A DNA stretch of 64,000 nucleotides from Atribacterota bacterium (GTDB taxonomy: Bacteria; Atribacterota; Phoenicimicrobiia; Phoenicimicrobiales; Phoenicimicrobiaceae), in contig JBBRDV010000001.1 in the NCBI GenBank assembly GCA_038203565.1, positions 72,335 through 136,334 of the forward strand, given 5' to 3'. Position 1 is the first letter of the stretch; every line of letters begins with the position of its first letter. A program made the position numbers and the translations under genes. Shown in pieces: positions 2,460 to 63,771 of this stretch. Below the pieces are notes generated by a model, which was not told the origin of the DNA, searched no databases, and saw only the letters and a list, made by a program, of their open reading frames with translations.

Positions 2460-2556
2460 ATTCCCTCTATCTTTAATTCGTAGCACGTATTGCGTATCGA
2501 GTATCGCGTGTAAACGCTATACGCTCTACGCTAGTTTTATTCACGAGCGACTATTT

Positions 2557-3162
2557 TTATTTTTCCATTTTGATCTTTTCTCCGATTTTTCTTTCTTTCT
2601 TTGATTTTAATTTTTCAATATTATCTTTATGTTTAAAAATACCGAGAATCATAATTATCGCACTGAATATAACATATTCATAAGGTTGTTTAAATAATAT
2701 TGTAAAAATAAAAATAGAAATTACAGCGAAAATAGATGATAAAGAGGCGTATCTTGTTATTATTATAACAATCACCCAGACTATTACTGCTAAAATTGAT
2801 ATCGTTGGATTGAGAGCAAATACAACTCCAAAGGTAGTAGCTATACCTTTACCGCCCTTAAACCCGAGAAATAAAGACCAGTCATGACCACATATTACTG
2901 CTAACCCTGCAATAGTTAATATTAATAAATTATCAATATTAAAATATTGTACTAAATAGATAGAAAAAATACCTTTGCCAATATCGCCAATTACTACAAA
3001 AGAAGCTAATAGAGGTCCCAATATCCTAAGAGCATTGGTTGCACCTATATTTCCGCTTCCGAGTTCTCTTATATCTACTTTCTTAAACAGTTTACCAACA
3101 ATATAGCCAAAAGGTATGGAACCCAAAAGATAACAACTTATAATTATTAAAACAATCTTCAT
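2557..3162 (-). CDS. plsY: glycerol-3-phosphate acyltransferase PlsY
   Basis: 201-aa polytopic membrane protein containing LGSGNIGATN and GGKGIAT motifs. Confidence 0.85.
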   Translation of the reverse strand: MKIVLIIISCYLLGSIPFGYIVGKLFKKVDIRELGSGNIGATNALRILGPLLASFVVIGDIGKGIFSIYLVQYFNIDNLLILTIAGLAVICGHDWSLFLGFKGGKGIATTFGVVFALNPTISILAVIVWVIVIIITRYASLSSIFAVISIFIFTILFKQPYEYVIFSAIIMILGIFKHKDNIEKLKSKKERKIGEKIKMEK

Positions 3163-4505
3163 ACTGTTTCCCTCTCCTCACTTTTTCTCGCTAAATTGAT
3201 AACTACAGGTGAGCCTTCAAAACCAAAAGTTTCATAAAATTTATTTTCTAAATATTTATGATAAGAGGTATACATTAATTTAGGATTGTTTACAAATAAT
3301 AGAAATGTAGGTGGTTTTATCCCTGTTTGAGTAGCGTATTTAATTTTTAGGGTATTTCCCACTACATATTTTGGAGGATTTTTAGAAATAACTTCTCTTA
3401 TAAAAGCATTTATTGCCGAAGTGGGAATTTTTTTACTGTATTGTAAGGCAACTTCTTTAATTTTTGAAATAATTTTATCAATATTATAACCTGTTATGGC
3501 AGAAGTCATTATCACGGGAGAGTTTTTCATAAAAGACAATTCATATCTTATCTCATCAATAAATAATTTTCTATCTATATTATCTTTAATTAAATCAAAT
3601 TTATTCAATATTATAATGCAGGCTTTTCTTTCATCTTGGATGTAATTTGCCATTTTTTTATCTTGCATGCTTACTCCCTGGGTAGCGTCCAATATCAATA
3701 ACACTATATCTGAATTATGCACCGCTTCAAAAGTTCTTAATGTACTGTAATATTCAACATCTTCTTTCGGTTTCGCCTTACCTCTCAAGCCTGCGGTATC
3801 GATAAATATTAATTTTAGTAAATCATGTTTAAAAATTATTTCAATAGCATCTCTGGTGGTGCCGGGATGTTCGCTGACTATAATTCTATCTTCCCCTAAA
3901 ATACGATTTAATAAACTTGATTTTCCTACATTGGGTTTCCCAATAATTGATATTTTTATAATGTCCTCTTCTTCTTCCGGTTCTGTTCCTACTTCTGGAA
4001 TACAGGATACTATTCTATCTAATAAATCATCAACATTAAGTCCGTGTTCTGCCGAAATAATATAGGGATCTCCGAATCCTAATTCGTAAAACTCATATAA
4101 TTTTAATTCACTTCCCTTTACATCTCCCTTGTTGGCTACCAGGATGCTTGTTTTATTTTTTTCTCTAATCGCTTTAGCCACCTTAAAATCATCCGGATTT
4201 ATTCCCTCTTTGACATCGACCAATAATATAATTAAGTCTGCCTCTTCAATAGCCAATTTAGTCTGAACAGTTATTTTTTTTTGCATTTCTTCTTTTTTTA
4301 TAAAATCCACGCCTCCGGTATCTACCAGAACAAATTGCTTTCCTTTCCATTTACATTCTGCATATATCCTATCTCTGGTAATTCCAGGTTCGTTTTCCAC
4401 AATAGCGGTTCTTTTCTTGGTGATTCTATTAAATAGGGTCGATTTCCCTACATTTATCCTTCCGATAATAGCAACAATAGGTTTTCTCAAGGCAAACACT
4501 CCCAT
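3159..4505 (-). CDS. der: ribosome-associated GTPase Der/EngA (tandem GTPase domains)
   Basis: Two G-domains (GRINVGKSTLFN and GKPNVGKSSLLN; DTAGLR) followed by a C-terminal KH-like domain. Overlaps plsY by 4 nt. Confidence 0.9.
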   Translation of the reverse strand: MGVFALRKPIVAIIGRINVGKSTLFNRITKKRTAIVENEPGITRDRIYAECKWKGKQFVLVDTGGVDFIKKEEMQKKITVQTKLAIEEADLIILLVDVKEGINPDDFKVAKAIREKNKTSILVANKGDVKGSELKLYEFYELGFGDPYIISAEHGLNVDDLLDRIVSCIPEVGTEPEEEEDIIKISIIGKPNVGKSSLLNRILGEDRIIVSEHPGTTRDAIEIIFKHDLLKLIFIDTAGLRGKAKPKEDVEYYSTLRTFEAVHNSDIVLLILDATQGVSMQDKKMANYIQDERKACIIILNKFDLIKDNIDRKLFIDEIRYELSFMKNSPVIMTSAITGYNIDKIISKIKEVALQYSKKIPTSAINAFIREVISKNPPKYVVGNTLKIKYATQTGIKPPTFLLFVNNPKLMYTSYHKYLENKFYETFGFEGSPVVINLARKSEERETV

Positions 4506-4522
4506 TTTTTAATTTTATTTTC

Positions 4523-5179
4523 CTATTTTAAAATGTTTTTTATTTTCTTTATGGTCATTTCAGGATTTGAGCTTTTAGATATGATTTGACCAACCACAAT
4601 TATTTCTGCTCCGGCTTTAACCACCTGATAAATATTATCTAAATTTATTCCGCCATCAACTGCCAAGCTTATTGATTTTTTTTGATTATCTATTATTTTT
4701 CTCGCCTTTTCTATTTTAGTAATCATCTCCGGGATAAATTTCTGCCCGCCAAAACCCGGATTAACTGTCATTAATAATAATATGTCTATCTTATTAATTA
4801 AATACTCAATAACACTTAGAGTAGTTGCCGGATTTAGAGCAATACCGGATTTTACATTAGACTCATTAATAGTTTGGATAAGTCTGTCAAGGTGTTTAGA
4901 AGTTTCGTAATGTACAATTATAATATCTCCACCCGCATCAACAAATGATTTAATGTGATTCTCCGGTTTTTCTACCATCAGATGAACTTCTAAGGGAAGA
5001 GAGGTTATACTTTTAATTGATTCTACTATCCTGGGACCAAAGGAAATATTCGGTACAAAATTTCCATCCATAATGTCTAAGTGAAGTAAATCTGCCCCTC
5101 CGTTTTCTATCTTTTTTATTTCTCTTTCCAAATGGGCAAAATCTACATCCAAGATTGAGGGAGCCAATTTTTTTATCAT
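4523..5179 (-). CDS. rpe: ribulose-phosphate 3-epimerase
   Basis: APSILDVDFAHLEREI..HLDIMDGNFVPNISFGP..VNPGFGGQKFI, which are Rpe hallmarks. Confidence 0.9.
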   Translation of the reverse strand: MIKKLAPSILDVDFAHLEREIKKIENGGADLLHLDIMDGNFVPNISFGPRIVESIKSITSLPLEVHLMVEKPENHIKSFVDAGGDIIIVHYETSKHLDRLIQTINESNVKSGIALNPATTLSVIEYLINKIDILLLMTVNPGFGGQKFIPEMITKIEKARKIIDNQKKSISLAVDGGINLDNIYQVVKAGAEIIVVGQIISKSSNPEMTIKKIKNILK

Positions 5180-5237
5180 AATTATAACACCACCTATTTA
5201 TATAAATAATTGTGTATTTTAAAAACTTTGGTCATAA

Positions 5238-6773
5238 TTAATACAGCCATAATTTACGATCAAGGCTTCTATATTGAATGGATTCAGATAAATGAGAAAT
5301 TTCTATCTTCTTTGATTGTTCTAAATCAGCTATGGTTCGGGCTACTTTTAATATACGGTCATAAGCTCGAGTACTTAAATTTAACTTTTCCATTGCCTTG
5401 TAAAGTAAATTTTTAGCATTGTCATCAATATTACAATATTCTTTAATCTGTTTTTTGGTCATTCGAGCATTACAAAAAATACTGTCTTCACAATATCTTT
5501 CTCTTTGTATTTTTCTTGCTCTTTCCACTCTTTCTCTTATGGTAAAAGAGTTTTCTTCAAAATCCTTCTCCATGACTTCTCGACAATTTATCCGGGGGAC
5601 TTCAATATGAATGTCAATTCGATCTAATAACGGTCCCGATATTTTTGAACGATATTTAACAATTTGAGACGAACTACAAGTGCAAACCTTAACCGGATCA
5701 CCGTAAAAGCCGCAAGGACAGGGATTTAGGGAAGATATCAACATAAAAGAAGAAGTATAACTAACAGAGCTAAGAGAGCGTGAAATGGTGACTATCCCGT
5801 CTTCCAGGGGTTGACGTAGAGATTCTAAAGCACTTCGGGAAAATTCCGGTAATTCGTCTAAAAATAGTACACCATTATGGGCCAAGCTAATTTCTCCTGG
5901 TTTGGGCGTCTTGCCTCCTCCGATTAATCCAACATTACTTATAGTATGATGCGGAGCTCTGAACGGTCTCTCCGTAACCAAAGGGGTATCCGGTGGAAGT
6001 AAATTGGCAATACTATATAATTTAGTAATTTCTATAGATTCTTCCAGGGTCAAAGAAGGAAGGATGGTTGGAAGCCTGCGTGCCAGCATGGTTTTTCCGG
6101 AACCTGGCGGACCAATCATTATAACATTGTGACTTCCAGCTGCCGCTACTTCGAAGGCTCTTTTAGCGTGTTCCTGTCCTTTAACCTCAGAAAAATCTAT
6201 TAGACTGTTTTCGCTTAGTCGAAAAATATCTTCTAAATCTATGAATACCGGTTCAATGGATATTTTTTTATTTAAAAAATCAATTACTTGGTAAAGTGAA
6301 TTAACAGGAAATACTTTTAATTCTTTAATTATCCCTGCTTCCTTAGCGTTTGCTTGAGGAATAAGCAATTTTTTTTTACCTATTTTTTTTGCCATCAAAG
6401 CAATGGGAAGCACACCATTTACCGGTTTTATACTTCCATCTAAAGATAATTCACCCATAATTAGATATTCATTTAATTGATCTGGCTTAACTTGCTTACT
6501 GGCAACTAAAATTGCCAGAGCGATAGATAGGTCAAAAATAGGACCTTCTTTTTTAATGTCCGCTGGAGCAAGATTTACCGTAATTCTCTGCATAGGAAAT
6601 TCGAATTCAGTATTTTTTATGGCGGCTCTAACTCTTTCTCGGGATTCCTGAACAGCCGTATCGGGCAATCCTACGATATTGAACGAAGGCAATCCTGGAT
6701 GAATATCAACTTCGATTTCTACCATAAAAGCTTCAACTCCGAATATAGCCGCACTATATAATTTGGATAACAA
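5238..6773 (-). CDS. YifB/ComM family Mg-chelatase-like AAA+ ATPase
   Basis: N-terminal Lon-like ChlI domain, Walker [11 protein letters not shown], and a C-terminal Mg-chelatase subunit ChlI-like region. Confidence 0.8.
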
Positions 6774-6962
6774 AAAAACACCTACTTTTTTAGTGAATAG
6801 TCATTAGTATTGTGTATTACGTTTGTTTCATCCTAACCCTAATCTTCTAAGGGGAGAGGGAATAAAGATTCTGTATCTTTTAATTCATCCCAATTGTACA
6901 CGCTAAACTCTCTACGCTGTACACTATCTTGCTATATACTCGATACTTACTTAATAATTAAA

Positions 6963-7337
6963 TTAAAAGGCTTGGTTGCTATCAAGATAAAAAGCATTCT
7001 TGATATGTTTTAACCTTTTTACATCTTTATGGTTAGAGATGCTGACCAATATTACATCGAAACAATAATTTTTCTCCCAAAGATTATATTTAGCTAAATA
7101 ACATAAAGCGTTTTTAATTATTTTTCGTTGTTTATTAAAGTTTATTGCTTCTTCAGGATATCCAAACTTATCAGAACGCCTGGTTTTTACTTCCACAAAG
7201 ATAATATTTCCCTTATATTCACTGATAATATCTATTTCTCCCAAGAAGGTACGATAATTTCTCTCTTTAATTTTGTAACCTTTTTCTTCTAAATATTTAG
7301 AAGCTATATCTTCTCCAAATTTCCCTATATTATCCAT
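6963..7337 (-). CDS. yraN: YraN family (UPF0102) predicted endonuclease
   Basis: 124 aa with GE(I/L)D..VFVEVKTRR core. Lies downstream of rnhB, as in Bacillota. Confidence 0.75.
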   Translation of the reverse strand: MDNIGKFGEDIASKYLEEKGYKIKERNYRTFLGEIDIISEYKGNIIFVEVKTRRSDKFGYPEEAINFNKQRKIIKNALCYLAKYNLWEKNYCFDVILVSISNHKDVKRLKHIKNAFYLDSNQAF

Positions 7338-7368
7338 CTGTAATAATCATCTATCTTTGTATTATTTG

Positions 7369-7543
7369 ATTAATCGTTGATTTTAAATACAACTTTTAGT
7401 TGTCAGTCTACAGTCTGGTACAAGGGAATATAATAATACAACCTCTACGCGCTTTGATTTTTCTATAAACTGGCAACTTGAAACCTATAATTATTAATTA
7501 TTAATGTATTTATTTGCTAAAGGCTATTCACTAATGACTAATT
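7369..7543. mobile_element. MITE-like dispersed repeat, copy A (~175 bp) bounded by degenerate inverted 12-mer termini
   Basis: Left end ATTAATCGTTGA; right end CTAATGACTAAT (reverse complement ATTAGTCATTAG). The core is ~80% identical to copy B at 22920-23117. Confidence 0.6.
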
Positions 7544-7559
7544 TCTTATTTTAAGTCAG

Positions 7560-8258
7560 CTACATCATTACTCTTTTATAGCTTTTTCTATGTATTTCTG
7601 ATGGGCCATACTTAAGTAGTGCTTTAAGATGTTCTTTTGTTCCATAACCTTTATTTTTTTTGAAAAGGTACTGTGGATATTTTTGGTCATATTGAATCAT
7701 AATATTATCTCTATAGACTTTAGCAACTATAGAGGCAGCAGCAATCGATATACTTCTGTCTTCACCTTTAATTAATGGTATCTGGAAAATATTTAGGTGA
7801 GGAATTTTAAAGCCGTCCACTAATAAATAATCAGGTAATTCTTTTAAATCTAAAATAGCTTTTTTCATTGCCAAAAAAGAAGCCTGAGCGATATTTATTC
7901 TATCAATAATTTTAGCTTCTACAACACCAATTCCCACGTCTTTTGCTTTACTTAAGATAGAACAATACAATTCTGTTCTTTTTTGTGAACTTAACTTTTT
8001 AGAATCTTTAATATAGGGAATAAACAATCGGCAGGGCAAAATTACTGCGGCAGCCACTACTGGCCCGGACAATGAACCCCTGCCTACCTCATCTATCCCG
8101 GCAATCAAAGAGTACCCTTCAAGTTTTAGTTGATTTTCATAGTTATAGAGATTATAAATTCTTAATCTTTCTGCATATAATCTTTCAATTTTTCTCCGAT
8201 AACTACAAATTATTGTTTTTGTTATTTTTGTTTTCCTATCTTTTACCTCAGGATCCAT
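7560..8258 (-). CDS. rnhB: ribonuclease HII
   Basis: IAGIDEVGRGSLSGPVVAAAVIL and DSKKLS motifs. Confidence 0.9.
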   Translation of the reverse strand: MDPEVKDRKTKITKTIICSYRRKIERLYAERLRIYNLYNYENQLKLEGYSLIAGIDEVGRGSLSGPVVAAAVILPCRLFIPYIKDSKKLSSQKRTELYCSILSKAKDVGIGVVEAKIIDRINIAQASFLAMKKAILDLKELPDYLLVDGFKIPHLNIFQIPLIKGEDRSISIAAASIVAKVYRDNIMIQYDQKYPQYLFKKNKGYGTKEHLKALLKYGPSEIHRKSYKRVMM

Positions 8259-8262
8259 TTAA

Positions 8263-8607
8263 TTATCTTTTTTCTTTAACTTTACTGGTTTTCCCAATCC
8301 TATCTCTTAAGTAATATAATTTTGCTCTTCGCGTTTTCCCTTTTTTTACAGATACTATTTTTACAATATTCGGTGAATGTAATTGAAATACTTTTTCTAC
8401 CCCAACACCTTTGGAAATTTTTCTTACTGTAAATGTTTCTTTACTTCCACCATGCTTTTTAGCTATGACTACTCCTGTAAAAACTTGTACTCGCTCTCTG
8501 GCGCCTTCAATAATTTTTTGATGTACTTCCACTGTATCACCAGGTGCAAATTCGCTATTCTCTTTTTTAGACTGTTCTTCTTCTAATTGTTTAATGTAAT
8601 CTACCAT
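8263..8607 (-). CDS. rplS: 50S ribosomal protein L19
   Basis: L19 signature FAPGDTV.V..KI.EG.RER.Q.F.GVVI. The likely start is the internal MVDYIKQ codon; the ORF track extends to 8643. Confidence 0.9.
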
Positions 8608-8687
8608 AAAAATCATCCTTCCTAAATATTTTTTAAATAACATTTTCTAATTATTTACTATACGCTCTCTTCACGTCCTAGGCCACA

Positions 8688-10000: not shown

Positions 10001-10047
10001 TAAAATTTCTCCTTATTCACTAACGACTAATACACTAACGGCTAATT

Positions 10048-10278: not shown

Positions 10279-10299
10279 AATAATCTCCTTAGGTCTTAT

Positions 10300-10548: not shown

Positions 10549-10635
10549 TGATTTTGCCTCCATTCTGTTATTTACATTTTTTTATTTTTCTGTATTTTTT
10601 ATATATCTTTCTATTCTCTTTTAACTTTAACTATT

Positions 10636-10664
10636 GTAGGGGCGCGATACATCGTGCCCCTACA
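10636..10664. promoter_or_regulatory. GC-rich hairpin between ffh and rpsP
   Basis: TGTAGGGGC-GCGATACATCGT-GCCCCTACA: a 9-bp stem, unusually GC-rich for this genome, with no trailing U-tract on either strand. Confidence 0.4.
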
Positions 10665-10693
10665 AATTACCCGTTAGATATTTAAAGACTAAT

Positions 10694-17358: not shown

Positions 17359-17713
17359 CTTTTTTATATTTGCCTGAACCAATTATAACTCCCGTTGAAT
17401 AAGAATCCTTTTCAGTAATTTTCAATTTAGAATCCTCAAGTGCCAGCATTGCCGCAACAATTGAAAATTGAGTGCTTTTATCCATTCTGTTTGCTTCTTT
17501 GACAGATATGTAATTTGTATAATTGAAATCTTTTACTTCTGCTGCTATTTTAGTAGGATATTTTTCGGTATCGAAATAACTTATCCTGTCGATACCACAT
17601 TTTCCTTGAATTAAGGATTGCCAAAATTTATTTTTTCCAATTCCTACGGGAGTAACCGGACCTAAACCGGTAATTACCACTCTATTTTTCAATATCCTAT
17701 TCTCCACCGTCAT
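17351..17713 (-). pseudogene. fabF: 3-oxoacyl-ACP synthase II (FabF) N-terminal remnant, only 120 codons
   Basis: MTVENRILKNRVVITGLGPVTPVGIG..FDTEKYPTKIAAEVKDF..STGVIIGSG matches FabF residues ~1-125. It then stops (..KYKKDE*) exactly at the rnc start. No room remains for the ~290 missing codons. Confidence 0.7.
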
Positions 17714-20853: not shown

Positions 20854-20898
20854 TAATTAGCATTCTCCCCTTCTTGTTAGTGAATTATTTTTTTTTAT

Positions 20899-22851: not shown

Positions 22852-22919
22852 AACGCATGCCTCCTTATTATATAATATAATTTAATTTTATCGGGATTTC
22901 CTTTTTTCCGTAAAGCCTA

Positions 22920-23117
22920 ATTAGTCGTTAGCTTCAAATACAAGTTTTTAGTTATCAATTTACAGTTTATTACAATGGAGTATGATAATACAACCTTAAC
23001 ACGCTTTGAGTTTTCTAAAAACTGGCAACTTGTAACTTGAAACTTAAAACCCATAACTTATTAATCATTAATGTGTTTTATTTACTAAATACTATTCACT
23101 ATTCATTAACGACTAAT
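22920..23117. mobile_element. MITE-like dispersed repeat, copy B (~198 bp) with perfect-ish terminal inverted repeats
   Basis: ATTAGTCGTTAG ... TTAACGACTAAT termini. The core (TACAACCT..ACGCTTTGA.TTTTCTA.AAACTGGCAACTTG.AAC) aligns with copy A. Confidence 0.6.
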
Positions 23118-23169
23118 ATAATATCTTAATAACTTTAAAAGTATATAATTTCTTATTGAAAAAAGCAAA

Positions 23170-24525: not shown

Positions 24526-24666
24526 AGTTTTTTCCTCCCAATCTTTTGCCTATATTTAAACTTGACAATTTATTTCTAATTATTTTTAGCAGGTTCGACG
24601 TATCGTACGCCCACCTCTTAGCCTTAATCTTCTCCACGCAATACTCGATACTCGATGCTAATTACT

Positions 24667-24682
24667 ATTCACTAACGACTAA
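24667..24682. repeat. representative copy of the 17-mer boundary motif TTCACTAACGACTAAT
   Basis: The same or a one- to three-mismatch motif, in either orientation, is at 2530, 6787, 7527, 10017, 10030, 22920, 23106, 31372, 31425, 34600, 39546, 39603, 60811 and 63638, always intergenic or touching a stop codon. Confidence 0.7.
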
Positions 24683-24691
24683 TCTATATAT

Positions 24692-31371: not shown

Positions 31372-31438
31372 AATTAGTCGTTAGCCTGTCTGCGCCTGCC
31401 TGTGCAGGTTCGCACAGGTAGATGAATAGTCATTAGTG
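31372..31438. repeat. ~67-bp hairpin-containing intergenic element, copy 1
   Basis: ATTAGTCGTTAG-CCTGTCTGCGCCTGCCTGTGCAGGTTCGCACAGGTAGATG-AATAGTCATTAGTG. Internal 7-bp stem CCTGTGC/GCACAGG. Copy 2 lies at 39546-39614 in inverted orientation. Confidence 0.7.
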
Positions 31439-31554
31439 TTAAATACACGTTTTAAGTTTTCAGCTCTCGGTTTTCAGTAAGTAGGGCCGTATTGCTTATT
31501 CTATTAACCGGTAAACCGAGTAACTGGTCAACTAATACGATATACGATATACTG

Positions 31555-34552: not shown

Positions 34553-34646
34553 TTGAAATACTCCTCTCTTAATTTTATTATTGAAATATGTCATCTGTTA
34601 ACTCATTATCGACTAATTATAAAATATTTTAAAAATAAATCTATAT

Positions 34647-37941: not shown

Positions 37942-37989
37942 AAAAACCTTCTTTTTTATTTTTTTATTAAAATTATAGCATAAATAAAC

Positions 37990-38160
37990 AAATGATAGAA
38001 CATAGTATTTCGTATTTCGTATTTCGTTAAGAAAGACTAGCGCAGAGTGTGTAGCGTTTAGTGTAGAGTTAAGAAAGAAGAATACAAAAGTCTAATTCGT
38101 ATTTGGTGAATCGTATCTCGGATGTAACGATATACCATATACGATATACGATATACGATT
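37990..38160. repeat. cluster of 7-bp-periodic tandem repeats and ACGCT-module
   Basis: (GTATTTC)x3 at 38004-38026; CTAGCGCAGAGTGTGTAGCGTTTAGTGTAGAG, the reverse complement of the CTCTACGCTAAACGCT..CACT module; CGTATCTCG; and (ATACGAT)x3 ending at the pdp stop. Confidence 0.7.
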
Positions 38161-39487: not shown

Positions 39488-39545
39488 TTAATGTTTCCTC
39501 CCAATTGTATTCTTTGGGAATTTTTTTTGCATTTTGTATTTAAAA

Positions 39546-39614
39546 CTAACGACTATTCATCTACCTGTGCGAACCTGCACAGTCAGGCGCAGACAGGATA
39601 TTTACTAATGACTA
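39546..39614. repeat. ~67-bp hairpin-containing intergenic element, copy 2 (inverted, overlaps hppA stop codon)
   Basis: Reverse complement is nearly identical to 31372-31438, differing at one position. Confidence 0.7.
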
Positions 39615-41576
39615 TTTTATAAATAGAGGAACAAACACCAGAGCGACTATAGACATTACTTTAATTAATATATTCATAGAAGGGCCGGCAGTATCTTTAA
39701 GAGGATCACCTACAGTATCACCTATAACTGCGGCCTCATGGACTTTTGTACCTTTTCCCCCATAATTTCCCATTTCAATATATTTTTTGGCATTATCCCA
39801 AGCTCCTCCGGAATTGGCCATCTGTATAGCCAACAATACTCCTACTAACACTGCTCCAATCAACATTCCTCCCAATGCTTCTGGTCCAAGTACTATTCCT
39901 ACTACTATAGGGGCAATTATGGCTAACAACCCGGGCAATACCATCTCTTTTAAAGCTCCTTTAGTGCTAATATCTACACATCTCGCAGAATCCGGCTTAG
40001 CTTTTCCCTCTTTCAAACCAGGAATTTCTCTAAATTGCCTTCGAACTTCTTCTATCATTAAGAAAGCTGTTTTCCCTACTGCATTTATGGCTAAAGCAGA
40101 AAAAAGATAAGGCAAAAGACCACCTATAAACATCCCGGCTACCACTATCGGATTGGTTATGCTTATAGTTTCTAAACCTACAGATTTACAATAAGCTGAA
40201 AATAAAGCCAAAGCAGTTAATGCTGCTGAGCCGATAGCAAAACCCTTTCCAATAGCAGCTGTGGTATTTCCTACAGCATCTAATGAATCGGTAATTTTTC
40301 GAACCTTGGGATCCAGCCCGGCCATTTCGGCAATTCCACCCGAATTATCAGCAATCGGACCATAGGAATCAACGGAAACCGTCATGCCGACTATAGAAAG
40401 CATTCCTACCGCTGAAACAGCAATACCGTATAAACCCGCGAATTTATAGGCAACTAATACCGTAAAGGCAATCACGAGTAGTGGTATAGCAGTACTTTGC
40501 ATACCGACAGCCAATCCCGAAATAATGGTAGTTGCTGCTCCGGTAAGTGATGATTTAGAAATTGATTTTACCGGAGGATAATGGTAAGAGGTATAATATT
40601 CAGTTACTAATCCGATAATTATACCGGCAATCAATCCAGCGGTAGTGGCATAAAATACATTTAAACTATTAAATAAAACATTAGAAAGAAAAGCAGAAGC
40701 AATAATAACTAAAAATCCGCTTGCCAAAGTTCCTTTGGTTAAAGCAAGATTTAGATTCTTTTCACTTTTAGTATTTACAAAAAAGGTGCCTATAATAGAA
40801 GAAATTGCCCCACAAGCAGCTAACAATAGAGGGAACATAACTCCTTTAGCCCCTTCAAATAATAATCCACCTAAGATCATGCTGGAAATAATTGCACCTA
40901 CATAAGATTCAAATAGGTCTGCACCCATTCCGGCTATATCCCCTACATTATCCCCTACATTATCAGCGATAACTGCCGGGTTACGAGGGTCATCTTCGGG
41001 TATCCCTACTTCCACCTTTCCCACTAAATCAGCTCCCACATCTGCTGCCTTAGTAAATATTCCACCACCTACTCTGGCAAATAAGGCTATAGAGCTCGCG
41101 CCTAAAGCAAATCCATTTATAATTTCCGGGTCTCTGATGAAGTAATATAAAATACCTAAACCTAATAATCCAAAACCTGCTACCGACATACCCATTACTG
41201 CACCACCGGAAAAAGCAATTTTTAATGCTTTGCTTATTCCGCCATCCATGGCAGCATGAGCAGTCCTCGAATTTGCTTTAGTGGCAATTTTCATTCCGGT
41301 TAAACCTGCTAATCCAGAACAAATTGCCCCCACCACAAAAGATAAGCTGGTAATAGGGTTTCTCACCCAGCCCAGTACAAGACTAACTACAATGATAAAA
41401 AATACTAAAACGCTATATTCTCTTTTTAAAAAAGCCATAGCTCCCTGTTCAATCATCTTTGATATTTCTTGCATTAATTCATTTCCCGGTTTTTCTCTAA
41501 TTACCTTCAGAGAAAGAAATACGGCAAATATAAGGCTAATTATGCCACTAAGAGGGATTAACAGTTCAATTTGCAT
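39612..41576 (-). CDS. hppA: membrane-bound ion-translocating pyrophosphatase
   Basis: 654-aa polytopic protein with the V-PPase signature GDNVGD..DLFESY.. and GDTVGDP.. Confidence 0.9.
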
Positions 41577-48241: not shown

Positions 48242-48277
48242 ATTAACATCTCTTTCTCTCTTAATTACTAATGAAAT

Positions 48278-48326
48278 TCCCTCTCATAGAGATTTTCTGA
48301 AAACTATTATCTGTTAGAGAGAGGGA
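48278..48326 (-). promoter_or_regulatory. hairpin in glyQ leader
   Basis: 8-bp stem TCCCTCTC / GAGAGGGA with a ~33-nt interior. No T-box consensus is present. Confidence 0.4.
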
Positions 48327-48342
48327 CAATATTTTATTTGTT

Positions 48343-48371
48343 AATATATCAAAATCAGCCTTAATTGTCAA
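48343..48371 (-). promoter_or_regulatory. putative sigmaA promoter of glyQ-glyS-PDRP-ppdK
   Basis: Minus strand TTGACA (48366-48371), a 17-nt spacer, then TATATT (48343-48348). Gives a ~95-nt leader to the glyQ ATG. Confidence 0.5.
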
Positions 48372-48374
48372 CGT

Positions 48375-48672
48375 AACTAAATATAGTATCGAGTATCAAG
48401 TATCCAGTATCGAGCGAAGGAAATCGGTTGTCAGTTATCGGTTATAATTTTTAAATAAAGAAATAAAAAGAATTGGATTCTGTATTCTGACTTCTTTTTA
48501 TTAACTAACCAGCAAGGGATGCAATGTGTAACATTTGGTAAGTAACGTGTAATAAGTAACCCGTTGTTGTAAATCCAGAACTATAGTTTTATTACATATT
48601 ACTTAATACTGTGTTCTTTTCACTCTACGCTAAACGCTCCACACTAGTTTGCACGAGATACGAGATACGAAT
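48375..48672. repeat. two repeat clusters in the recO-glyQ spacer
   Basis: 48380-48415 TATCGAGTATCAAGTATCCAGTATCGAG (TCGAGTA-type heptads) and 48612-48672 CTCTACGCTAAACGCTCCACACTAGTTTGCACGAGATACGAGATACGA. Confidence 0.65.
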
Positions 48673-48680
48673 TTAGCCAG

Positions 48681-55837: not shown

Positions 55838-55906
55838 ATAAATTGATTCCGGGTACCATAGAAAAATATTCTCATTCTATGGTGCCCGGATTTTATTTTC
55901 CTAACC

Positions 55907-56875: not shown

Positions 56876-57087
56876 TAATAGATCCTCCTTTAAATTTTTA
56901 AAATTTAATTGATCATACTAAAAGCAAATATCTTTCTTAGGCTTATACCTCACCTCCTATTTTTTTAACTCTTTTCCTTCAGCAAATCTATACAAAGTAA
57001 TTTTTTCTAACTATTTACTTTTTAGGTTAAAATATCCTGAAAAAGTAAATAAATATAATTATCAATTTGATTATATTAAACATATAG

Positions 57088-59671: not shown

Positions 59672-59747
59672 ACTTTTACCTGAAATTTTATCTCTACCTT
59701 TCCATTTATTCTATTTATCATATAGGTTCACGAGGTTGCATTACTCC

Positions 59748-60581
59748 TTATTTCTGGTTCCGTAAATCTTCCCTTTCATAAGCACGGATAATCTCCTGAA
59801 CCAATCTGTGTCGCACCACGTCCCGATCATTAAGATATACAAATTCGATACCTTTTATATTTTTAAATATCTTTTCCACTCTTGTTAATCCAGAATGTTC
59901 TTTAAGTGGTAAATCTATCTGAGTAATATCCCCATTAATTATAACTTTAGAACCAAAACCAAATCGGGTTAAAAACATCTTCATCTGCCCAAAAGTAGTA
60001 TTTTGAGCATCATCCAAAATAATAAAGGAATTATTTAAGGTTCTTCCTCTCATATAGGCTAATGGGGCTATTTCTATTATCCCTCTTTCCATATACTTTT
60101 GAAATTTTTCGGAAGGCATCATTTCGTACATTGCATCATATAAGGGGCGAAAATAGGGGTCTATCTTTTCCAATAAATCTCCGGGTAAATAACCTAAACT
60201 TTCTCCGGCTTCTACCGCTGGTCTAACCAAAATTATTCTATCTACTTCTTCATTCTTTAGGGCAGATAAAGCAATAGCAACTGCTAAGTAGGTCTTTCCC
60301 GTTCCAGCAGGTCCGATAACAAAGACAATATCATTCTTTTTAACAGCTTCTATATATTTCTGTTGACCTAAAGTTTTTGGCTTAATCTCTTTATCTTTTT
60401 TAAAAACGAGAATCACGTCTTTGTATAATAATTTCCAATCTACAGGCTGGTTACTCTGAGACATTTCGACATGGTATTTTACCTGTGCTAAAGAAAGTGG
60501 ATGCCCATTCCTAATTATAGAGAGAAGCTCTTCAATTATTTTTACAGCCTTATCCGTTTCGCTTTTTATCCCTAAAATCAC
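59748..60581 (-). CDS. phoH: PhoH family ATPase (GTG start in ORF track; homology continues upstream)
   Basis: IGPAGTGKTYLAV..RPAVEAGESLGYLPGDL. The same frame stays open up to 60737 and there encodes ..NELRELFGQYDENIKLINQHFTIKISTQNDSKL, which looks like the PhoH N-terminal domain, but with no ATG/GTG/TTG start. Confidence 0.85.
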   Translation of the reverse strand: MILGIKSETDKAVKIIEELLSIIRNGHPLSLAQVKYHVEMSQSNQPVDWKLLYKDVILVFKKDKEIKPKTLGQQKYIEAVKKNDIVFVIGPAGTGKTYLAVAIALSALKNEEVDRIILVRPAVEAGESLGYLPGDLLEKIDPYFRPLYDAMYEMMPSEKFQKYMERGIIEIAPLAYMRGRTLNNSFIILDDAQNTTFGQMKMFLTRFGFGSKVIINGDITQIDLPLKEHSGLTRVEKIFKNIKGIEFVYLNDRDVVRHRLVQEIIRAYEREDLRNQK

Positions 60582-60767
60582 TAACTTGCTATCATTTTGG
60601 GTTGATATCTTTATAGTAAAATGCTGGTTGATAAGTTTGATATTTTCATCATATTGTCCAAAAAGTTCTCTTAGCTCATTTTTATTATTAATTGATATGC
60701 TATGACTTATGTTTTTATCTTTTTCTATTATAATTCCCTACTTTCGTAAAATATAGTAAAGGAACTA

Positions 60768-60826
60768 AAAGTGTAAAACGCTAAACGCTGTACACTCTTC
60801 GCTAGTTTTGTTCGCTAACGATTAAT
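60768..60826. repeat. composite intergenic repeat: ACGCT module + 17-mer terminus
   Basis: AAAACGCTAAACGCTGTACACTCTTCGCTAGTTTTGTTCGCTAACGATTAAT. Modules of the same kind occur at 2481-2554, 6896-6952, 24593-24684, 25781-25826 and 31532-31552. Confidence 0.65.
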
Positions 60827-61234
60827 TTATCGTAATCTTTTATATCTCTGAAAATCATAAGGCCTTAAAGCTCTAGGCGGAGCAATTATCTCTGATAATA
60901 TTATTCCGTTAACCAGAATATTATTAGATAAATATATTTCCAATCCGCTTTCCCGGCTAGATGAAATTTCTTCTCCATCTTCTACTACCGGTTTTTCAGC
61001 TAAAACCTCTTTCTCTTTATCCTCAACTTTGTTCTTATAAAATTCTTTAACCTCTTCATCTATAATAATTTTATCCCCGGGCGGACCTGCTTCATCCTGA
61101 ATTTCTGAAAATACCGAGATGGAATTATCTTCTTCTTTCCGCATTAAGCTATAAGATTTTCTTTTCTTATTTCCTATCCGGCTTAATAAACTTATTATAA
61201 TATAGAAAATAGATATATATAAAACTAATGACAT
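60827..61234 (-). CDS. hypothetical small membrane protein (positional YqfB-like, downstream of floA)
   Basis: 135 aa with an N-terminal TM helix and an acidic middle region. No recognisable motif. Confidence 0.4.
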   Translation of the reverse strand: MSLVLYISIFYIIISLLSRIGNKKRKSYSLMRKEEDNSISVFSEIQDEAGPPGDKIIIDEEVKEFYKNKVEDKEKEVLAEKPVVEDGEEISSSRESGLEIYLSNNILVNGIILSEIIAPPRALRPYDFQRYKRLR

Positions 61235-61271
61235 TGTTTACTCTATCCTTTTTAAGTAAAATAATACTATC

Positions 61272-62252
61272 TTATTTATTTTCTTTCTTCTTTGAGGTTT
61301 CAGAGATACTATCCCGCATAGCAGTATCGGCAGCGATATTTTTCAAATTATAATAATCCATTACTCCTAATTTTCCAGTTCTTAACGCTTCTGCCATAGC
61401 CTTAGGAACTTCTGCTTCTGCTTCTACCACCTTTGCTCTCATTTCTTGGACTCTGGCTTTCATTTCTTGCTCCTGAGCTACCGCTAAAGCCCTTCTTTGC
61501 TCGGCCTTGGCTTGAGCAATCTTCTTATCCGCTTCTGCCTGATCAGTTTGCAGCATGGCACCAATATTTTTACCTACATCTACATCCGCAATATCTATGG
61601 ATAATATTTCAAAAGCTGTCCCGGCATCTAAACCTTTTTTTAATACAGTCTTAGAAATATTATCTGGGTTTTCTAAGACATTTTTATGGGTTTCTGCTGA
61701 ACCAATAGTAGTAACAATTCCCTCTCCTACTCTAGCTATAATGGTTTCCTCGCCAGCTCCTCCAACTAACCGTTCAATATTTGCTCTTACCGTCACTCTG
61801 GCAGTGGCCATAACTTGAATACCATTTTTGGCTACCGCTGCTACTATCGGTGTTTTTATTACTTTTGGGTTTACACTCATTTGAACAGCCTCCAAGACAT
61901 CTCTTCCAGCTAAATCAATAGCGGTACCTTTTTCAAAAGATAAAGGAATGCCTGCTCTTTCTGCAGCAATCAAAGCATTAATCACTCGATCAACATTTCC
62001 CCCAGCCAAGTAATGCGCTTCCAATTTATCAATAGAAATGGTCAAACCAGCTTTAGTGGCCTTGATTAAAGCATTAACAATCTGATGAGGAGGAACCCTT
62101 CTAAGTCTCATACCCACCAAAGTAAAAATCCCCACCTTTACTCCTGCCGCTATAGCTGAAATCCATAATCCTACCGGTATAAATTGAAAGAAAATATAGA
62201 TTATAAAAATAACTACAATAATTGGAATCAACGGAACTAATAACTCAGTCAT
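61272..62252 (-). CDS. floA: flotillin-like protein FloA (SPFH/band-7)
   Basis: N-terminal TM helix, an SPFH domain, and a C-terminal Ala/Glu-rich coiled coil ([19 protein letters not shown]). Confidence 0.85.
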
Positions 62253-62288
62253 TTCTTTACCTCCTTATTCTAAAATAATAATAAGCTA

Positions 62289-63617
62289 TCAAGAAACATC
62301 AATCGCTTCGACAACTATCTTATTGCCTTCAACACTAATTATTTTAATTTTGCTATTAGAAACAATGTATTCTCCCTGAGTAATAACATCTAATTTTTTG
62401 CCATTAATCTCTGCTATACCAGACGGGCGCAAAGGGGTAATGGTTATGCCTTTTTCCCCGGTCAATCGTTTTAAATCTTTTGTCCCTACTGTATATCCCA
62501 ATTCCTTTTTCTGCTCAGTAGAAAGTACAAACTTTCTCCAGGTTCGAGTGGAAGGAATATATTTAATTAATAAGAAAAACCCTATTACGGATATACTCAG
62601 GGCAATCAAAATAGAATAAGTCGCCTGGGTAATATTCCCAAAAGTAAGAAATATACTGGCTAAAATAGCTGCAATTCCGCTTATTCCAGCCAGACCGAAA
62701 CCGGGAATAAAAAATATTTCTGCCAAAAGCAAAATAAACCCGATTGCAAATAGGATAATTGTTTCAAATCCTGCTAAACCGACGATTATATGTCCTCCAA
62801 AAAATAAAGACAGAGAAATTATTCCTATTAACCCTGCAATCCCCCAGCCTAAAGTCCAAAATTCAATTATCAGTCCTAAAAAACCTATAGACAATAATAA
62901 TGGGCTGACTACAGGATTGGTAATAAATCGGCTTATATTCTCTGCCCAATTTGGATAAATATATACTATTTTAGCATCTTTGAGATTTAGAAAATTTAAA
63001 ACTTCTTCAATATTTGAATAAATACCATCTACAAAATTTAATTTTATAGCTTGTTCTGCATTTAAAGTTAATATTTTATCTTTTTTTATTATACCATTAA
63101 TTTCTACATCTTTGTCAACCATGGCTGCAGCTATATCTTCCGAACGCCCTCTGCTTGAAGCAGTAGAAGTAAATTCAGCCCTTAAGGCTGAAATATTTTT
63201 TTCATCTGCCGGTCTTGGTTCTGCTGCACCGATACTGGCACTTTTATCTATTAGAATATATTCTGCAGATAGAGCAATCAGAGCTCCTGCAGACCAGGCT
63301 CTATTTTTAACATAGGCTACGTTTGGTATATTCAGGCTCAATATCTTATCTCTTATCTGGATAGCGGCATCTACTCTTCCCCCGAAGGTATCAATTTCTA
63401 AAATAACCGCTTTTGCCTTGTTTAAAACCGCTTCCTCTAAAGCCCGCTTTACATAAGAAGACAAACCTAAGTCAATTGTCCCTTTAATGGACACTAAATA
63501 TACTTCATCTATTTCGTTGGCGAACGTGTTTAGAGCAATTAAACTAAAAATTACAAATAGAGTTATAATGATAAGAAATACTTTGTACTTTTTATTTAAA
63601 TTATATTTTATTATCAA
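62289..63617 (-). CDS. NfeD family membrane-bound ClpP-class protease (YqeZ-like)
   Basis: ClpP/crotonase-like domain (GGRVDAA..SAGALIA), a TM segment block, and a C-terminal NfeD OB-fold. TTG start with an AGGAG RBS. Confidence 0.8.
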   Translation of the reverse strand: MIIKYNLNKKYKVFLIIITLFVIFSLIALNTFANEIDEVYLVSIKGTIDLGLSSYVKRALEEAVLNKAKAVILEIDTFGGRVDAAIQIRDKILSLNIPNVAYVKNRAWSAGALIALSAEYILIDKSASIGAAEPRPADEKNISALRAEFTSTASSRGRSEDIAAAMVDKDVEINGIIKKDKILTLNAEQAIKLNFVDGIYSNIEEVLNFLNLKDAKIVYIYPNWAENISRFITNPVVSPLLLSIGFLGLIIEFWTLGWGIAGLIGIISLSLFFGGHIIVGLAGFETIILFAIGFILLLAEIFFIPGFGLAGISGIAAILASIFLTFGNITQATYSILIALSISVIGFFLLIKYIPSTRTWRKFVLSTEQKKELGYTVGTKDLKRLTGEKGITITPLRPSGIAEINGKKLDVITQGEYIVSNSKIKIISVEGNKIVVEAIDVS

Positions 63618-63771
63618 ATAATTTACACTCCTAAGTTAGTCGTTAGTTTGAAATACAATATACAAGATAAACTAGTTAAATAGTTTAATTCTAATAATTT
63701 ATTAACCAATTAACTAAGTAATTAAGCAACAAATCGAGATATATATTAAAATTATAAAATTATAAAAACAA

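Follow-up and report, generated by a model that had tools for sequence, protein, structure and literature searches.

STRR-type heptamer tandem repeats were reportedly described in cyanobacteria by Mazel et al. in 1990. The BIMEs of E. coli are intergenic mosaics of REP hairpins and short conserved motifs, some of which flank the cluster, and the MITEs include Correia of Neisseria, Nezha of cyanobacteria, and BOX and RUP of pneumococcus. IS200/IS605 elements insert 3′ of a short target and produce no duplication. Uptake, Chi and KOPS signals also occur within genes and are skewed by replication strand.

TAACTGA heptamer repeats are found in Beggiatoaceae and some Bacteroidetes (MacGregor 2015, PMC4679880), and a regulatory role is suspected for heptamer repeats close to start codons in Beggiatoaceae and Nostoc (PMC4679880; bioRxiv 10.1101/2022.06.06.494920). 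REP/REPIN elements have been described with RAYT transposases (Bertels & Rainey 2011, PMC3116915, where BIMEs are also mentioned), as have GTAG-tagged REPs (PMC3733652), and MITE-type elements have been reviewed (PMC3184786). In the Bacillus hut terminator, three XAG triplets with 4-nt spacers are recognized on each face of the HutP hexamer (PMC2425495).

We analyzed a 64,000-nt stretch (the window) of the AT-rich (32% GC) genome of a JS1-type Atribacterota bacterium, whose intergenic arrays resemble STRR-like heptamer tandem repeats rather than REP or uptake signals, with which a motif in them had been compared for its density. As in STRR and TAACTGA repeats, 7-nt units form short tandem runs, many heptamer families are mixed within one spacer, and the runs are intergenic, often lie beside start codons and differ in copy number among strains. 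In contrast to those systems, the host phylum is Atribacterota, the unit sequences are others (no fetched locus contained an exact TAACTGA doublet), and an ordered head (ATTAGTC-GTTAGTG-AATAG) replaces a pure single-unit repeat. All families here also share a head-towards-gene polarity, of which we found no description for STRRs. BIMEs are likewise REP-plus-motif intergenic mosaics that lie after stop codons and inside operons, but they are built on alternating REPs and their filler motifs are not heptamer arrays, whereas here REP doublets are optional and central and arrays dominate. The REP/REPIN likeness consists of GTAG-tagged palindromes that occupy the same spacers and, in relatives, flank a single RayT gene; the 17-mer studied here, however, is neither palindromic nor GTAG-tagged and is dispensable next to RayT. 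MITEs are also small, non-coding and intergenic with presence/absence polymorphism and outward-facing ends, and can be modular (BOX-like) or carry promoter-like modules. Here, in contrast, the ends form no obligatory pair, interiors are not conserved, and there is neither target-site duplication nor a cognate transposase with matching ends. HutP sites share XAG triplets, 4-nt spacers, grouping in threes and a flanking GC-rich stem, but here the sites number in the hundreds, occur in both orientations and lack a hut context, and a HutP-like reader would be a hypothetical homologue.

Copies of the 17-mer and their heptamer structure

The original prediction described a 17-mer, ATTCACTAACGACTAAT, at about 15 sites in the window. 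A copy, here called a cap, was found within a few bases of each coordinate that it gave. The caps and associated features are as follows.

2537..2555, minus strand: cap AATAGTCGCTCGTGAATAA, 1 nt past the plsY stop codon
2485-2534: arrays of TAGCGTA-type and reversed TCGAGTA-type heptamers, inward of the preceding cap
6789..6814, plus strand: cap, ATTAG end 15 nt from the comM start codon (6773), just upstream of the RBS
7369..7382, plus strand: degenerate cap ATTAATCGTTGATT in spacer insert 7338-7559, at its end nearer to yraN
7510..7549, minus strand: cap array starting with ATTAGTCATTAGTGAATAGCCTTTAG, 10-17 nt after the rnhB stop codon
10013..10046, minus strand: two tandem caps that fill the spacer between the KH-protein gene and rimM from stop codon to RBS
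10636..10667, no strand: REP-like palindrome with a GTAG tag, GTAGGGGCGCGATACATCGTGCCCCTAC, between ffh and rpsP; it belongs to a co-resident hairpin family distinct from the 17-mer
22920..22933, plus strand: truncated cap ATTAGTCGTTAGCT in a spacer insert, at its end nearer to rpmF, abutting a promoter-like module TTAGGCTTTACGGAAAAAAGG
23078..23117, minus strand: cap array ATTAGTCGTTAATGAATAGTGAATAGTATTTAGTAAATAA at the other end, near ackA, of the insert whose rpmF side holds 22920..22933
24658..24683, minus strand: exact cap ATTAGTCGTTAGTGAATAG, 8 nt past the pta stop codon and followed inward by a TCGAGTA array (24635-24661)
31373..31447, plus strand: cap array with a GC-rich hairpin of 38-40 nt inserted into it (31386-31424)
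34599..34617, minus strand: degenerate cap ATTAGTCGATAATGAGTTA; the spacer that holds it is 52 nt long and separates the genes for an M50 peptidase and a class I W/Y tRNA synthetase (Pfam tRNA-synt_1b)
37942..38158, no strand: capless spacer with other heptamer arrays (GTATATC four to five times, CGAAATA three times, reversed TAGCG type)
39535..39616, minus strand: cap array that includes the hppA stop codon (39612-39614)
48242..48680, no strand: mosaic spacer, the largest in the window; period-7 structure occurs in five separate tracts (48381-48415, 48424-48445, 48474-48495, 48589-48611, 48650-48674)
60776-60796: TAGCG array beyond the following cap, resembling 2511-2557
60808..60826, minus strand: cap variant ATTAATCGTTAGCGAACAA that begins directly after the stop codon of gene 60827-61234
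63635..63653, plus strand: cap GTTAGTCGTTAGTTTGAAA; gene 62289-63617 begins 17 nt downstream of it

Over the whole window, the 17-mer or its complement matched nine times with at most three mismatches (at 2539, 7526, 10015, 10030, 23101, 24667, 34601, 39600 and 60810), compared with 0.25 matches expected from shuffled sequences, and all nine matches were intergenic. None of 100 shuffled sequences reached nine. A 14-mer core gave 19 matches with both strands counted, compared with 4.7 expected, and added sites at 6796, 22920, 31373, 31425, 39544 and 63635. When the window was scanned with a weight matrix trained on other contigs only, 24 of 27 matches fell within the non-coding 7.4% of the window (binomial P about 2e-24); these matches partly overlap and hence are not independent, representing about 15 separate sites. 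The earlier observation was thus confirmed as to number and intergenic placement. It was also correct about the tandem pair at 10013-10046, the copy at 39598-39616 that covers the H+-pyrophosphatase stop codon, and the bracketing pairs 22920/23117, 31373/31425 and 39544/39600. A ‘related form’ said to precede the fabH RBS (about 20865-20885) is doubtful, being a mere 10-nt match that is not conserved in the orthologous L188 spacer.

The 17-mer had been taken to be free-standing. Instead, it consists of two and a half 7-nt units (ATTAGTC GTTAGTG AATAG) and opens a degenerate heptamer array as its first units, with an extended consensus of TAA followed by ATTAGTC GTTAGTG AATAGTG AATAGTC GTTAGT and further units. 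The logo of the cap has an abrupt outer edge after TAA and decays slowly on its inner side. In the window, the match frequency at lag 7 was 0.382 in intergenic DNA versus 0.280 in coding DNA, with intergenic values of 0.30-0.33 at neighboring lags; 16 of 19 period-7 tracts were intergenic, and TRF also found the arrays. With two to four units the arrays are short, the lag-14 signal being weak and the lag-21 signal gone. As predicted, the 17-mer is not self-complementary and contains no hairpin plus T-run. Neither an Rfam family nor a plasmid record matched it, and the original prediction had likewise recognized no described element in it.

Polarity at gene boundaries and turnover between relatives

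The exact 17-mer was found in more than 120 metagenome contigs, and those that keep it range from 28% to 46% GC. Among copies in the window, L002 and 120 metagenome contigs, 185 of 198 (93%) were intergenic, with genes on the metagenome contigs assigned by crude long-ORF calls, and orientation followed the nearest gene end rather than the strand. The ATTAG end faces the adjacent gene and is either flush with its stop codon or just upstream of its RBS. Stop codon and motif lay exactly 0 nt apart in 17 cases, the distance was −5 in 7, and in about 45 of 83 it was at most 8 nt, whereas in reverse orientation the motif lay 4-30 nt ahead of start codons (13 nt for the array at cmk, 31373..31447). 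Paired copies were head-out in 28 cases and head-in in 3; with the weight matrix, the corresponding numbers were 48 and 0, and the outermost copies lay at relative spacer positions of 0.12 and 0.90. All ten heptamer families tested had the same inward polarity (Mann-Whitney p 1.7e-19 to under 1e-3). On sense RNA the two cap orientations were nearly equal (62 versus 54). Copies had been described as often paired, but forward and reverse caps co-occurred in a spacer no more often than by chance (18 observed versus 22.6 expected), indicating that each gene boundary carries its own cap independently; 71% of capped spacers were single-ended.

Filled, empty and altered spacers were all found at orthologous junctions of relatives, including pairs with 96% identical genes. 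Between rpe and der, the window has 17 nt but L002 has 476 nt, starting with AAAATAG followed by TCGTTAGTGAAT. The 222 nt that separate rnhB and yraN in the window correspond to 48 nt in L218, a relative with 96% identical genes that lacks insert 7338-7559. At the KH-rimM junction, 47 nt in the window compare with 266 nt in L218, with the 219 extra nucleotides placed exactly between cap and RBS. Indels either coincided with the edge of a cap or had lengths that were multiples of 7, with bumps in gap length at 7, 14 and 21, whereas spacers without arrays kept their length. For example, the L087 orthologue of the spacer at 63635..63653 has the same array lengthened by 21 nt (3 × 7), and the M50 peptidase-tRNA synthetase spacer of L178 holds a full cap array. 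Within the window, 31373..31447 and 39535-39609 are 91% identical in inverted orientation and are interrupted by the same GC-rich hairpin insert. No target-site duplication was visible at the filled and empty junctions compared. The arrays are restricted by lineage: a sister lineage is without them; the 21 kb of L203 hold none, L202 has them in two spacers, and L204, L218 and L219 have many.

The proposed boundary element of a modular repeat family is supported by the sharp outer edge and by interiors that are exchanged between relatives while the cap is kept. ‘Terminus or recombination site’ is a fair description of this behavior, but not of an isolated 17-mer, and the interpretation in the original prediction is therefore only partly supported.

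Origin of the blocks

The explanation that we favor, while giving it about an even chance of being right, is that the 17-mer is the gene-proximal head of polar, STRR-like, non-coding heptamer blocks that copy and slip. Together with other heptamer families and REP-type hairpins, the blocks form a fast-evolving intergenic mosaic in one JS1-type (uncultivated) Atribacterota lineage. Each block is anchored head-first at a gene end and extends inward, either 3′ of the stop codon (TAA followed by ATTAG, or with the motif's own TAG used as stop) or, on the opposite strand, directly upstream of the RBS. Orthologous junctions gain, lose and exchange blocks and arrays step by 7 while the conserved head survives. 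The head probably offers the homology, or is the recognized site, through which sequence is copied from other spacers, be it in ectopic recombination, in template switching at TAA/TAG microhomology or by a trans-acting enzyme, although neither such an enzyme nor an autonomous copy with cap ends was found. Unstructured and with stop codons in all three frames, it is probably tolerated beside genes for these reasons. The data show that the elements exist, are periodic, keep to intergenic DNA, point head-out, turn over and are confined to a lineage; we infer how they are copied and that most of them are neutral or selfish and not regulatory. On this reading the cap is neither a terminator nor an uptake signal, and inverted-repeat pairing of caps is not obligatory.

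REP-like hairpins are a component separate from the 17-mer in the same spacers. GTAG-tagged REP doublets lie near the spacer centre, mostly inverted and about 50 nt apart, and in relatives they flank a single RayT transposase gene.

We regard it as unlikely that the arrays are instead binding sites for a putative reader protein of single-stranded RNA or DNA with a 7-nt register, such as a HutP-like ring (three XAG, 4 nt apart) or a cold-shock-type OB-fold (about 7 nt per monomer). A cap at each gene exit would then mark departing transcripts for termination, antitermination, processing or stabilization, and a reversed cap would be an unstructured leader ahead of the RBS. The forward cap reads UAG-N4-UAG-N4-UAG, the spacing recognized by HutP, two to four units suit a trimeric site, and XAG-rich arrays are often found on the flanks of GC-rich hairpins (31373-31447, 39535-39616), an arrangement also seen in the hut terminator. 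Independent caps at each boundary suit a per-gene signal, repeats near start codons are suspected regulators elsewhere, and conservation of the exact 17-mer across diverged contigs of 28%-46% GC is explained as well by a functional trans-acting reader as by ongoing copying. However, with sense-RNA orientations of 62 versus 54, half of the copies read CUA rather than UAG, XAG is wholly absent from many array families, and caps come and go at housekeeping operon junctions between genomes with 96% identical genes. The cap inside the rpsP-KH-rimM-trmD operon leaves no room for a downstream promoter and so could not be a strong terminator, and an approximate query of 0.9 Mb of fragmentary related contigs found no HutP-like sequence.

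A mobile origin, with the cap as terminal inverted repeat of a MITE or as the end of a hairpin-type element that the lineage's RayT/IS200-like tyrosine transposase moves as ssDNA and that inserts 3′ of TAA/TAG, is decidedly improbable. It would account for the excess of head-out over head-in pairs (28:3 and 48:0), the sharp edge with its TAA flank, the discrete filled and empty alleles, the perfect 34-nt back-to-back palindrome formed by two caps in L201, the GTAG-REP doublets around RayT homologues, and the RayT (L182) and 23S_rRNA_IVP four-helix-bundle (L116) genes carried as cargo between head-out caps; insertion 3′ of TAA/TAG also matches the habit of IS200/IS605. The classic two-ended MITE model fails, however, because forward and reverse caps are statistically independent (18 versus 22.6 expected, with 71% of capped spacers single-ended), and interiors differ between copies and target-site duplications were not found. 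Y1 transposases recognize hairpins, whereas the cap is not one, capped spacers often fold no better than shuffled sequence, and the RayT loci of L206 and L209 have REP doublets and no cap. It is far less probable still that repeat addition or template-switch synthesis, primed by TAA/TAG microhomology at DNA ends or stalled forks, writes the arrays directionally, each side of a break being extended 5′ to 3′ to mid-spacer like telomere-type arrays fused head to head. All ten families run inward from both boundaries with independent sides, junctions lie directly after TAG or TAA, indels come in 7-nt units and the centre holds heterogeneous material and hairpins; but this architecture is the sole support, with no enzyme, ends or intermediates seen, and the same heptamer order at hundreds of sites needs a template, for which ordinary ectopic recombination is simpler. 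The motif is almost certainly neither an AT-rich word due to chance or low complexity nor a genomic signal of the DNA-uptake, Chi or KOPS type. AT-rich words recur at 32% GC, but the shuffles (0 of 100) refute a chance word, the exact 17-mer recurs in more than 120 contigs, and 93% intergenic placement with orientation set by the nearest gene end is unlike such signals.

Period-7 structure, overlooked in the original prediction, pervades most of the intergenic DNA of the window. The predicted fold energy of the capless spacer 37942..38158 was far below that of shuffled controls (z −3.9).

A heptamer-built motif at gene boundaries

The 17-mer ATTCACTAACGACTAAT, here termed the cap, had nine matches at ≤3 mismatches in the window, compared with 0.25 expected from dinucleotide shuffles. 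No shuffle reached nine, which excludes a chance word and bears out the excess claimed in the original prediction; the feature is real and strongly non-random. Its 14-nt core gave 19 matches on both strands of the window versus 4.7 expected, and the two sets combined recovered every site that had been predicted. The predicted intergenic siting also held. All of the 17-mer matches were intergenic, and a weight matrix built from sequences of other contigs alone placed 24 of its 27 matches, which represent roughly 15 independent sites, in non-coding DNA, which makes up 7.4% of the window (P ~2e-24). The copy described as covering the hppA stop was found at 39598-39616, where it overlaps the H+-pyrophosphatase stop codon. 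A ‘related form’ proposed in front of fabH is a 10-nt match only that is not kept in the orthologous spacer, and we discounted it.

On the gene strand the motif reads ATTAGTC GTTAGTG AAT(AG), or two and a half 7-nt repeat units. This make-up is not peculiar to the 17-mer and is common to many units in the spacers. TRF found period-7 arrays in the window spacers with units including CGTATCG, ACGCTAT, AAACTTG, ATACTCG, ACGATAT, GTATTTC and AGTATCG; 16 of the 19 period-7 tracts were intergenic. By inspection, heptamer arrays occur in about 17 of the 26 window spacers that are ≥40 nt long. The lag-7 self-match of intergenic DNA in the window was 0.382 versus 0.30–0.33 at neighbouring lags, and coding DNA gave a period-3 signal only (lag-7 match 0.280).

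The window has 32% GC, carries all but one of its 55–60 genes on the minus strand and has a GC skew of about −0.2 along its whole length (1-64000). The gene order is plsX-fabH-fabD-fabG-acpP ... rnc-smc-ftsY-ffh-rpsP-KH-rimM-trmD-rplS-rnhB-yraN-comM-rpe-der-plsY. No tRNA genes were found in the 64-kb window, nor did any Rfam family match it, whether gathering thresholds or a cut-off of E ≤0.05 was applied; the original prediction likewise did not recognise the motif as a described element. A Logan contig was 100% identical to the window across 13.7 kb, the nearest species-level genome was an uncultured Atribacterota MAG (TrmD 86%), and Ffh homologues with 76–97% identity came from ‘Candidatus Atribacteria’ wherever the source gives a name.

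Placement, polarity and turnover of the arrays

The exact 17-mer was present in at least 120 metagenome contigs (738 kb in total, mostly 30–37% GC). Placement was counted at ≤2 mismatches in at least 120 metagenome contigs, the window and L002, a contig from a relative (the other L numbers likewise denote contigs used for comparison). Among the matches listed, 185 of 198 copies (93%) were intergenic and the ATTAG end always pointed towards the neighbouring gene, so that the predicted intergenic bias was joined by an orientation set by the nearest gene end. Where the cap lay 3′ of a co-oriented gene, its first base directly followed the stop codon in 17 cases, its own TAG was the stop codon in 7, and it was ≤8 nt from the stop codon in about 45 of 83, again among the matches listed. 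Caps in the opposite orientation ended 4–30 nt 5′ of the start codon, directly upstream of the ribosome-binding site. The cap is anchored with its head outwards at TAA/TAG or directly before a ribosome-binding site, and independently at each boundary. In the cap logo the outer side has TAA at −3 to −1 (74, 59 and 79%) and background beyond that, and conservation on the inner side falls off gradually along AGTGAATAGTCGTTAGT. The element may include the TAA flank or may have it as a target.

When both orientations occurred in one spacer, head-out pairs, in which the ATTAG ends face the flanking genes, outnumbered head-in pairs 28:3, or 48:0 when counted by weight matrix; the outermost caps lay at relative spacer positions 0.12 and 0.90. 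However, 71% of capped spacers had one end only, and forward and reverse caps shared a spacer no more often than by chance (18 observed versus 22.6 expected). This independence rules out an obligatory inverted-repeat pair. The predicted boundary role of the motif was broadly right, but the pairs noted there are not the unit. Because the caps at the two ends are independent and capped spacers are often predicted to fold no better than shuffled sequence, each unit is a polar block with its head fixed at a single gene boundary and not a two-ended palindromic element. The smallest two-ended form observed is a perfect 34-nt palindrome at L201 4153-4186, in which two caps lie back to back, ATTAGTCGTTAGTGAAT followed by ATTCACTAACGACTAAT, and occupy the entire spacer.

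Ten heptamer repeat families of the spacers
A: the cap itself
B: TAGCGTA type
T: TCGAGTA type
W: GGTTAGC type
Q: CAGTTTT type
S: AGTCAGA type
K: AAAGCGA type
X: CCAATTG type
V: GTAATGA type
R: TCGTATC type

An inward polarity rule was common to all ten defined families, which recurred across the 120 contigs listed. Each family had one orientation in the left part of the spacer (median relative positions 0.14–0.40) and the reverse complement in the right part (0.66–0.89; Mann–Whitney p 1.7e-19 to <1e-3). Families A and B were outermost, and GTAG-tagged REP hairpins occupied the spacer centre (0.45 and 0.52). Mirror pairs exceeded chance for W, X and V only, most strongly for V (odds ratio 24).

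Turnover was followed in orthologous spacers of relatives with 87–96% gene identity. Array-free spacers kept their length and sequence; for example, the comM-rpe spacer (window 5180-5237) was 58 nt and of equal length in four genomes. Array spacers were replaced wholesale, with the cap retained at the boundary. The comparison of orthologous junctions proposed in the original prediction revealed both filled and empty spacers.

Filled and empty junctions
rpe-der: 17 nt in the window, 476 nt in L002; the L002 insert begins AAAATAG, then TCGTTAGTGAAT, at the rpe stop codon
rnhB-yraN: 222 nt in the window, 48 nt in L218 (96% identical) and L219; empty in these relatives
KH-rimM: 47 nt in the window, 266 nt in L218; the 219-nt indel is bounded exactly by ...GTTAGTGAAT and AAGGAG

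Boundary arrays of the window differed from those of L087 and L163 by 21 nt (3 × 7), and gap lengths in pairwise alignments had bumps at 7, 14 and 21. Blocks are rapidly gained, lost and replaced, and arrays change in 7-nt steps. The heptamer array system is restricted by lineage: a contig with 78% Ffh identity had no arrays in 21 kb (lag-7 match 0.314), one with 80% had arrays in two spacers, and contigs with 89–97% had many (lag-7 match 0.38–0.46).

Relation to known repeats and candidate mechanisms

STRRs, the heptamer tandem repeats of cyanobacteria, have been known for decades, and such repeats were later found in Beggiatoaceae and a few Bacteroidetes. We know of no agreed mechanism or function for them, and to our knowledge their origin and function have been unexplained since 1990. 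The arrays described here are closest in kind to the cyanobacterial STRRs and to the heptamer tandem repeats of Beggiatoaceae and Bacteroidetes (PMC4679880). They share the 7-nt unit in tandem runs, seen in the TRF output, the lag-7 peak and the cap itself, as well as a dispersed non-coding location (16/19 tracts, 93% of caps), mixed families (ten here) and strain variability. They differ in phylum, the host being a member of the Atribacterota and not a cyanobacterium, and in unit sequence. Identity with the canonical TAACTGA repeat was rejected, as no exact doublet was found in 217 loci and the window holds only a weak relative (48424-48444). No description of an ordered head with universal polarity was found in the literature searched, and no paper was found on repeats in Atribacterota. 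The element is of a kind that is known yet unexplained.

By defining features the element falls outside the REP, MITE, terminator and uptake-signal families; the original prediction had compared its density to that of REP or uptake-signal elements. Uptake, Chi and KOPS-type signals are frequent inside genes too, with orientation skewed by replichore, whereas the cap is intergenic and takes its orientation from the nearest gene end, and such signals are excluded. A REP/REPIN palindrome is 20–40 nt, GC-rich and tagged with GTAG or CGTC; the 17-mer is not self-complementary, and these features belong to a different co-resident element, GTAGGGGCACGATGCATCGTGCCC. An intrinsic terminator, which the original prediction had also argued against, was rejected since no hairpin is present in the motif, scanning for terminators gave 12 sites versus 11.3 in shuffles with none listed at any cap in the window, and the cap also occurs inside the rpsP-rimM operon. 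A promoter consensus scan found no enrichment relative to shuffles. A giant hairpin formed by pairing of the spacer arms was discarded (fold z-scores −3.9 to +0.9), and for neither of the two best capped inserts (7338-7559 and 22852-23169) did folding surpass that of shuffled sequence. A GC-skew dyad for Rho loading with C-rich outward RNA was discarded as well: half-spacer skews tracked the gene strand without a dyad, and families X and R have the opposite composition. A plasmid origin found no match among plasmid records.

Our preferred view, at about even odds, is that blocks multiply through copies taken from other spacers. The conserved head would serve as a homology or recognition point for copying, arrays would then drift by slippage, and the head would be tolerated beside genes because it is unstructured. 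Since 7 = 1 modulo 3, ATTAGTCGTTAGTGAATAG has stop codons in all three frames. Alternatively, cap arrays might be sites for a protein binding in a 7-nt register, since the forward cap reads UAG-N4-UAG-N4-UAG, the spacing of HutP sites (PMC2425495). However, both orientations are equally common on sense RNA, the reverse copies are without the XAG-N4 pattern, and caps are gained and lost between near-identical genomes, which makes a binding site rather doubtful. A tblastn search of 0.9 Mb of contig fragments with an approximate HutP query gave no match.

We consider a true MITE or a RayT-moved element unlikely. Spacers with both ends are always head-out by weight matrix, as terminal inverted repeats would be, and one RayT gene (in L182) lies between head-out caps, but the two ends co-occur at chance level. 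RayT is not supported as the cap mover, since at the RayT loci L206 and L209 REP doublets occur without a cap. No target-site duplication was seen at the three filled/empty junctions. Nor was a parent transposon with the same ends found in ~0.9 Mb of fragments, in which one RayT gene and one four-helix-bundle gene were all that head-out cap pairs enclosed apart from housekeeping genes. The inward polarity is common to all families, independent per boundary and starts at TAA/TAG, which could reflect a real directional process or reader, although we regard this as quite improbable. One such process would be a polar DNA synthesis or repair activity writing 7-nt repeats from the gene end to the spacer centre; one such reader, a genome-wide 7-nt-register nucleic-acid-binding protein marking every gene exit. 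Directional repeat writing at breaks or forks, for which the architecture of the arrays speaks, seems highly improbable. A cultured member of the phylum Atribacterota has a nucleoid enclosed by a membrane.

A directional process or reader, if true, would make these Atribacterota a way into how bacterial heptamer repeats arose or what they do. These uncultivated subsurface bacteria provide a dense, independent instance of such repeats, in which the head sequence is defined and all repeat families strictly point head-first towards the gene, and close relatives with clean filled/empty junctions plus a sister lineage without the system. Because these three properties combine, comparative tests are possible, of genes that track the arrays and of filled versus empty alleles.

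Other elements and rearrangements in the spacers

GTAG-tagged palindromes of the GTAGGGGCACGATGCATCGTGCCC type had 70 matches in the fetched loci (window copy 10636-10667), mostly as inverted doublets ~50 nt apart; a CACAATGAATTGTG variant of this REP-like family also occurs. In L182 (1-1313) an IS200-like gene, whose homologues JGI names ‘REP element-mobilizing transposase RayT’, lies among REP doublets, and REP-like sequence is found within its coding region (611-642). RayT homologues in other contigs (L205-L210) occupy a conserved place, often upstream of ligA-gatC-gatA, with REP doublets on either side. The lineage carries a system of the REPIN/RAYT type (as defined in PMC3116915), of which the cap does not appear to be part by the tests run. 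The spacers resemble E. coli BIMEs in being a mosaic of hairpins and flanking motifs.

GC-rich hairpins of 38–40 nt are inserted in cap arrays after GTTAG (31386-31424 and 39558-39597). The 75-nt stretches around them (31373-31447 and, inverted, 39535-39609) are 91% identical, with the hairpin core CCTGTGCAGGTTCGCACAGG in the cap array; one adjoins the cmk ribosome-binding site and the other the hppA stop. A ~145-nt element is present in two copies (7369-7513 and 22920-23065; 75% identical), containing AAGTTNC-type heptamers and a conserved core AAAGCGYGT...GGTTGTATTAT; it matched no Rfam family and had no significant fold. Some mosaics carry at their gene-proximal end a recurrent module made up of TTAGGGTTTACGGAAAAAAGG and then AAT..ATAAAAT. 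For the downstream genes that could be named, rpmF (window and L188) and rimM (L095), the module precedes the ribosome-binding site. Judged by its sequence, it looks like a portable −35/−10 promoter (TTTACG, 18 nt, TAAAAT). A composite module found several times per contig in relatives has inverted GTAATGA/GTTACTC heptamer arrays around a conserved AT-rich core, TTGTTTTTAT..ATTT.GGAAATTTAATCT.

Sites of the two recurrent modules
TTAGGGTTTACGGAAAAAAGG module: window 22865-22920; L095 450; L184 10308; L188 7441; L194 775
GTAATGA/GTTACTC composite module: L002 1-170, 3380-3490, 5860-5960, 6050-6150 and 8370-8480; L204 20480-20530

Small 23S_rRNA_IVP genes (four-helix-bundle, Avd-like) lie inside mosaics in L116 (6544-6906, between head-out caps) and L131 (189-539), as do decayed fragments in L187 (6123-6260) and L156 (712-887). 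A Coxiella S23p ORF, homologous to 23S_rRNA_IVP, is likewise preceded by tandem heptamers (PMC4990558), a coincidence of interest.

Seven hits to the 17-mer lay in viral contigs; four were single occurrences without arrays, which we attribute to chance. Real cap arrays were present in one virus-like contig family: L214-L216, of the contig family of L161, are IMG/VR-classed as viral and have 45–46% GC, far from the 30–37% of other cap carriers, with caps as a head-out pair ~720 nt apart at L216 7661-8397. They may stem from a virus that infects these hosts, from a transfer or from misclassification.

Array spacers break assemblies, as seen from the closest RayT homologues, which are on 1–5 kb contigs, and from an N run in the L218 ffh-rpsP spacer. 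Local deletions, such as the one that may have truncated fabF in the window, may be due to them as well. This gene (17393-17692, between acpP and rnc) retains the first 100 codons only, with 83% identity to residues 1–100 of L204 FabF, and no second fabF was found in the 64-kb window. Because L202 and L204 keep a full fabF followed by a 334–342 nt mosaic spacer at the same place, the truncation is likely to be a deletion or an assembly collapse at repeats.
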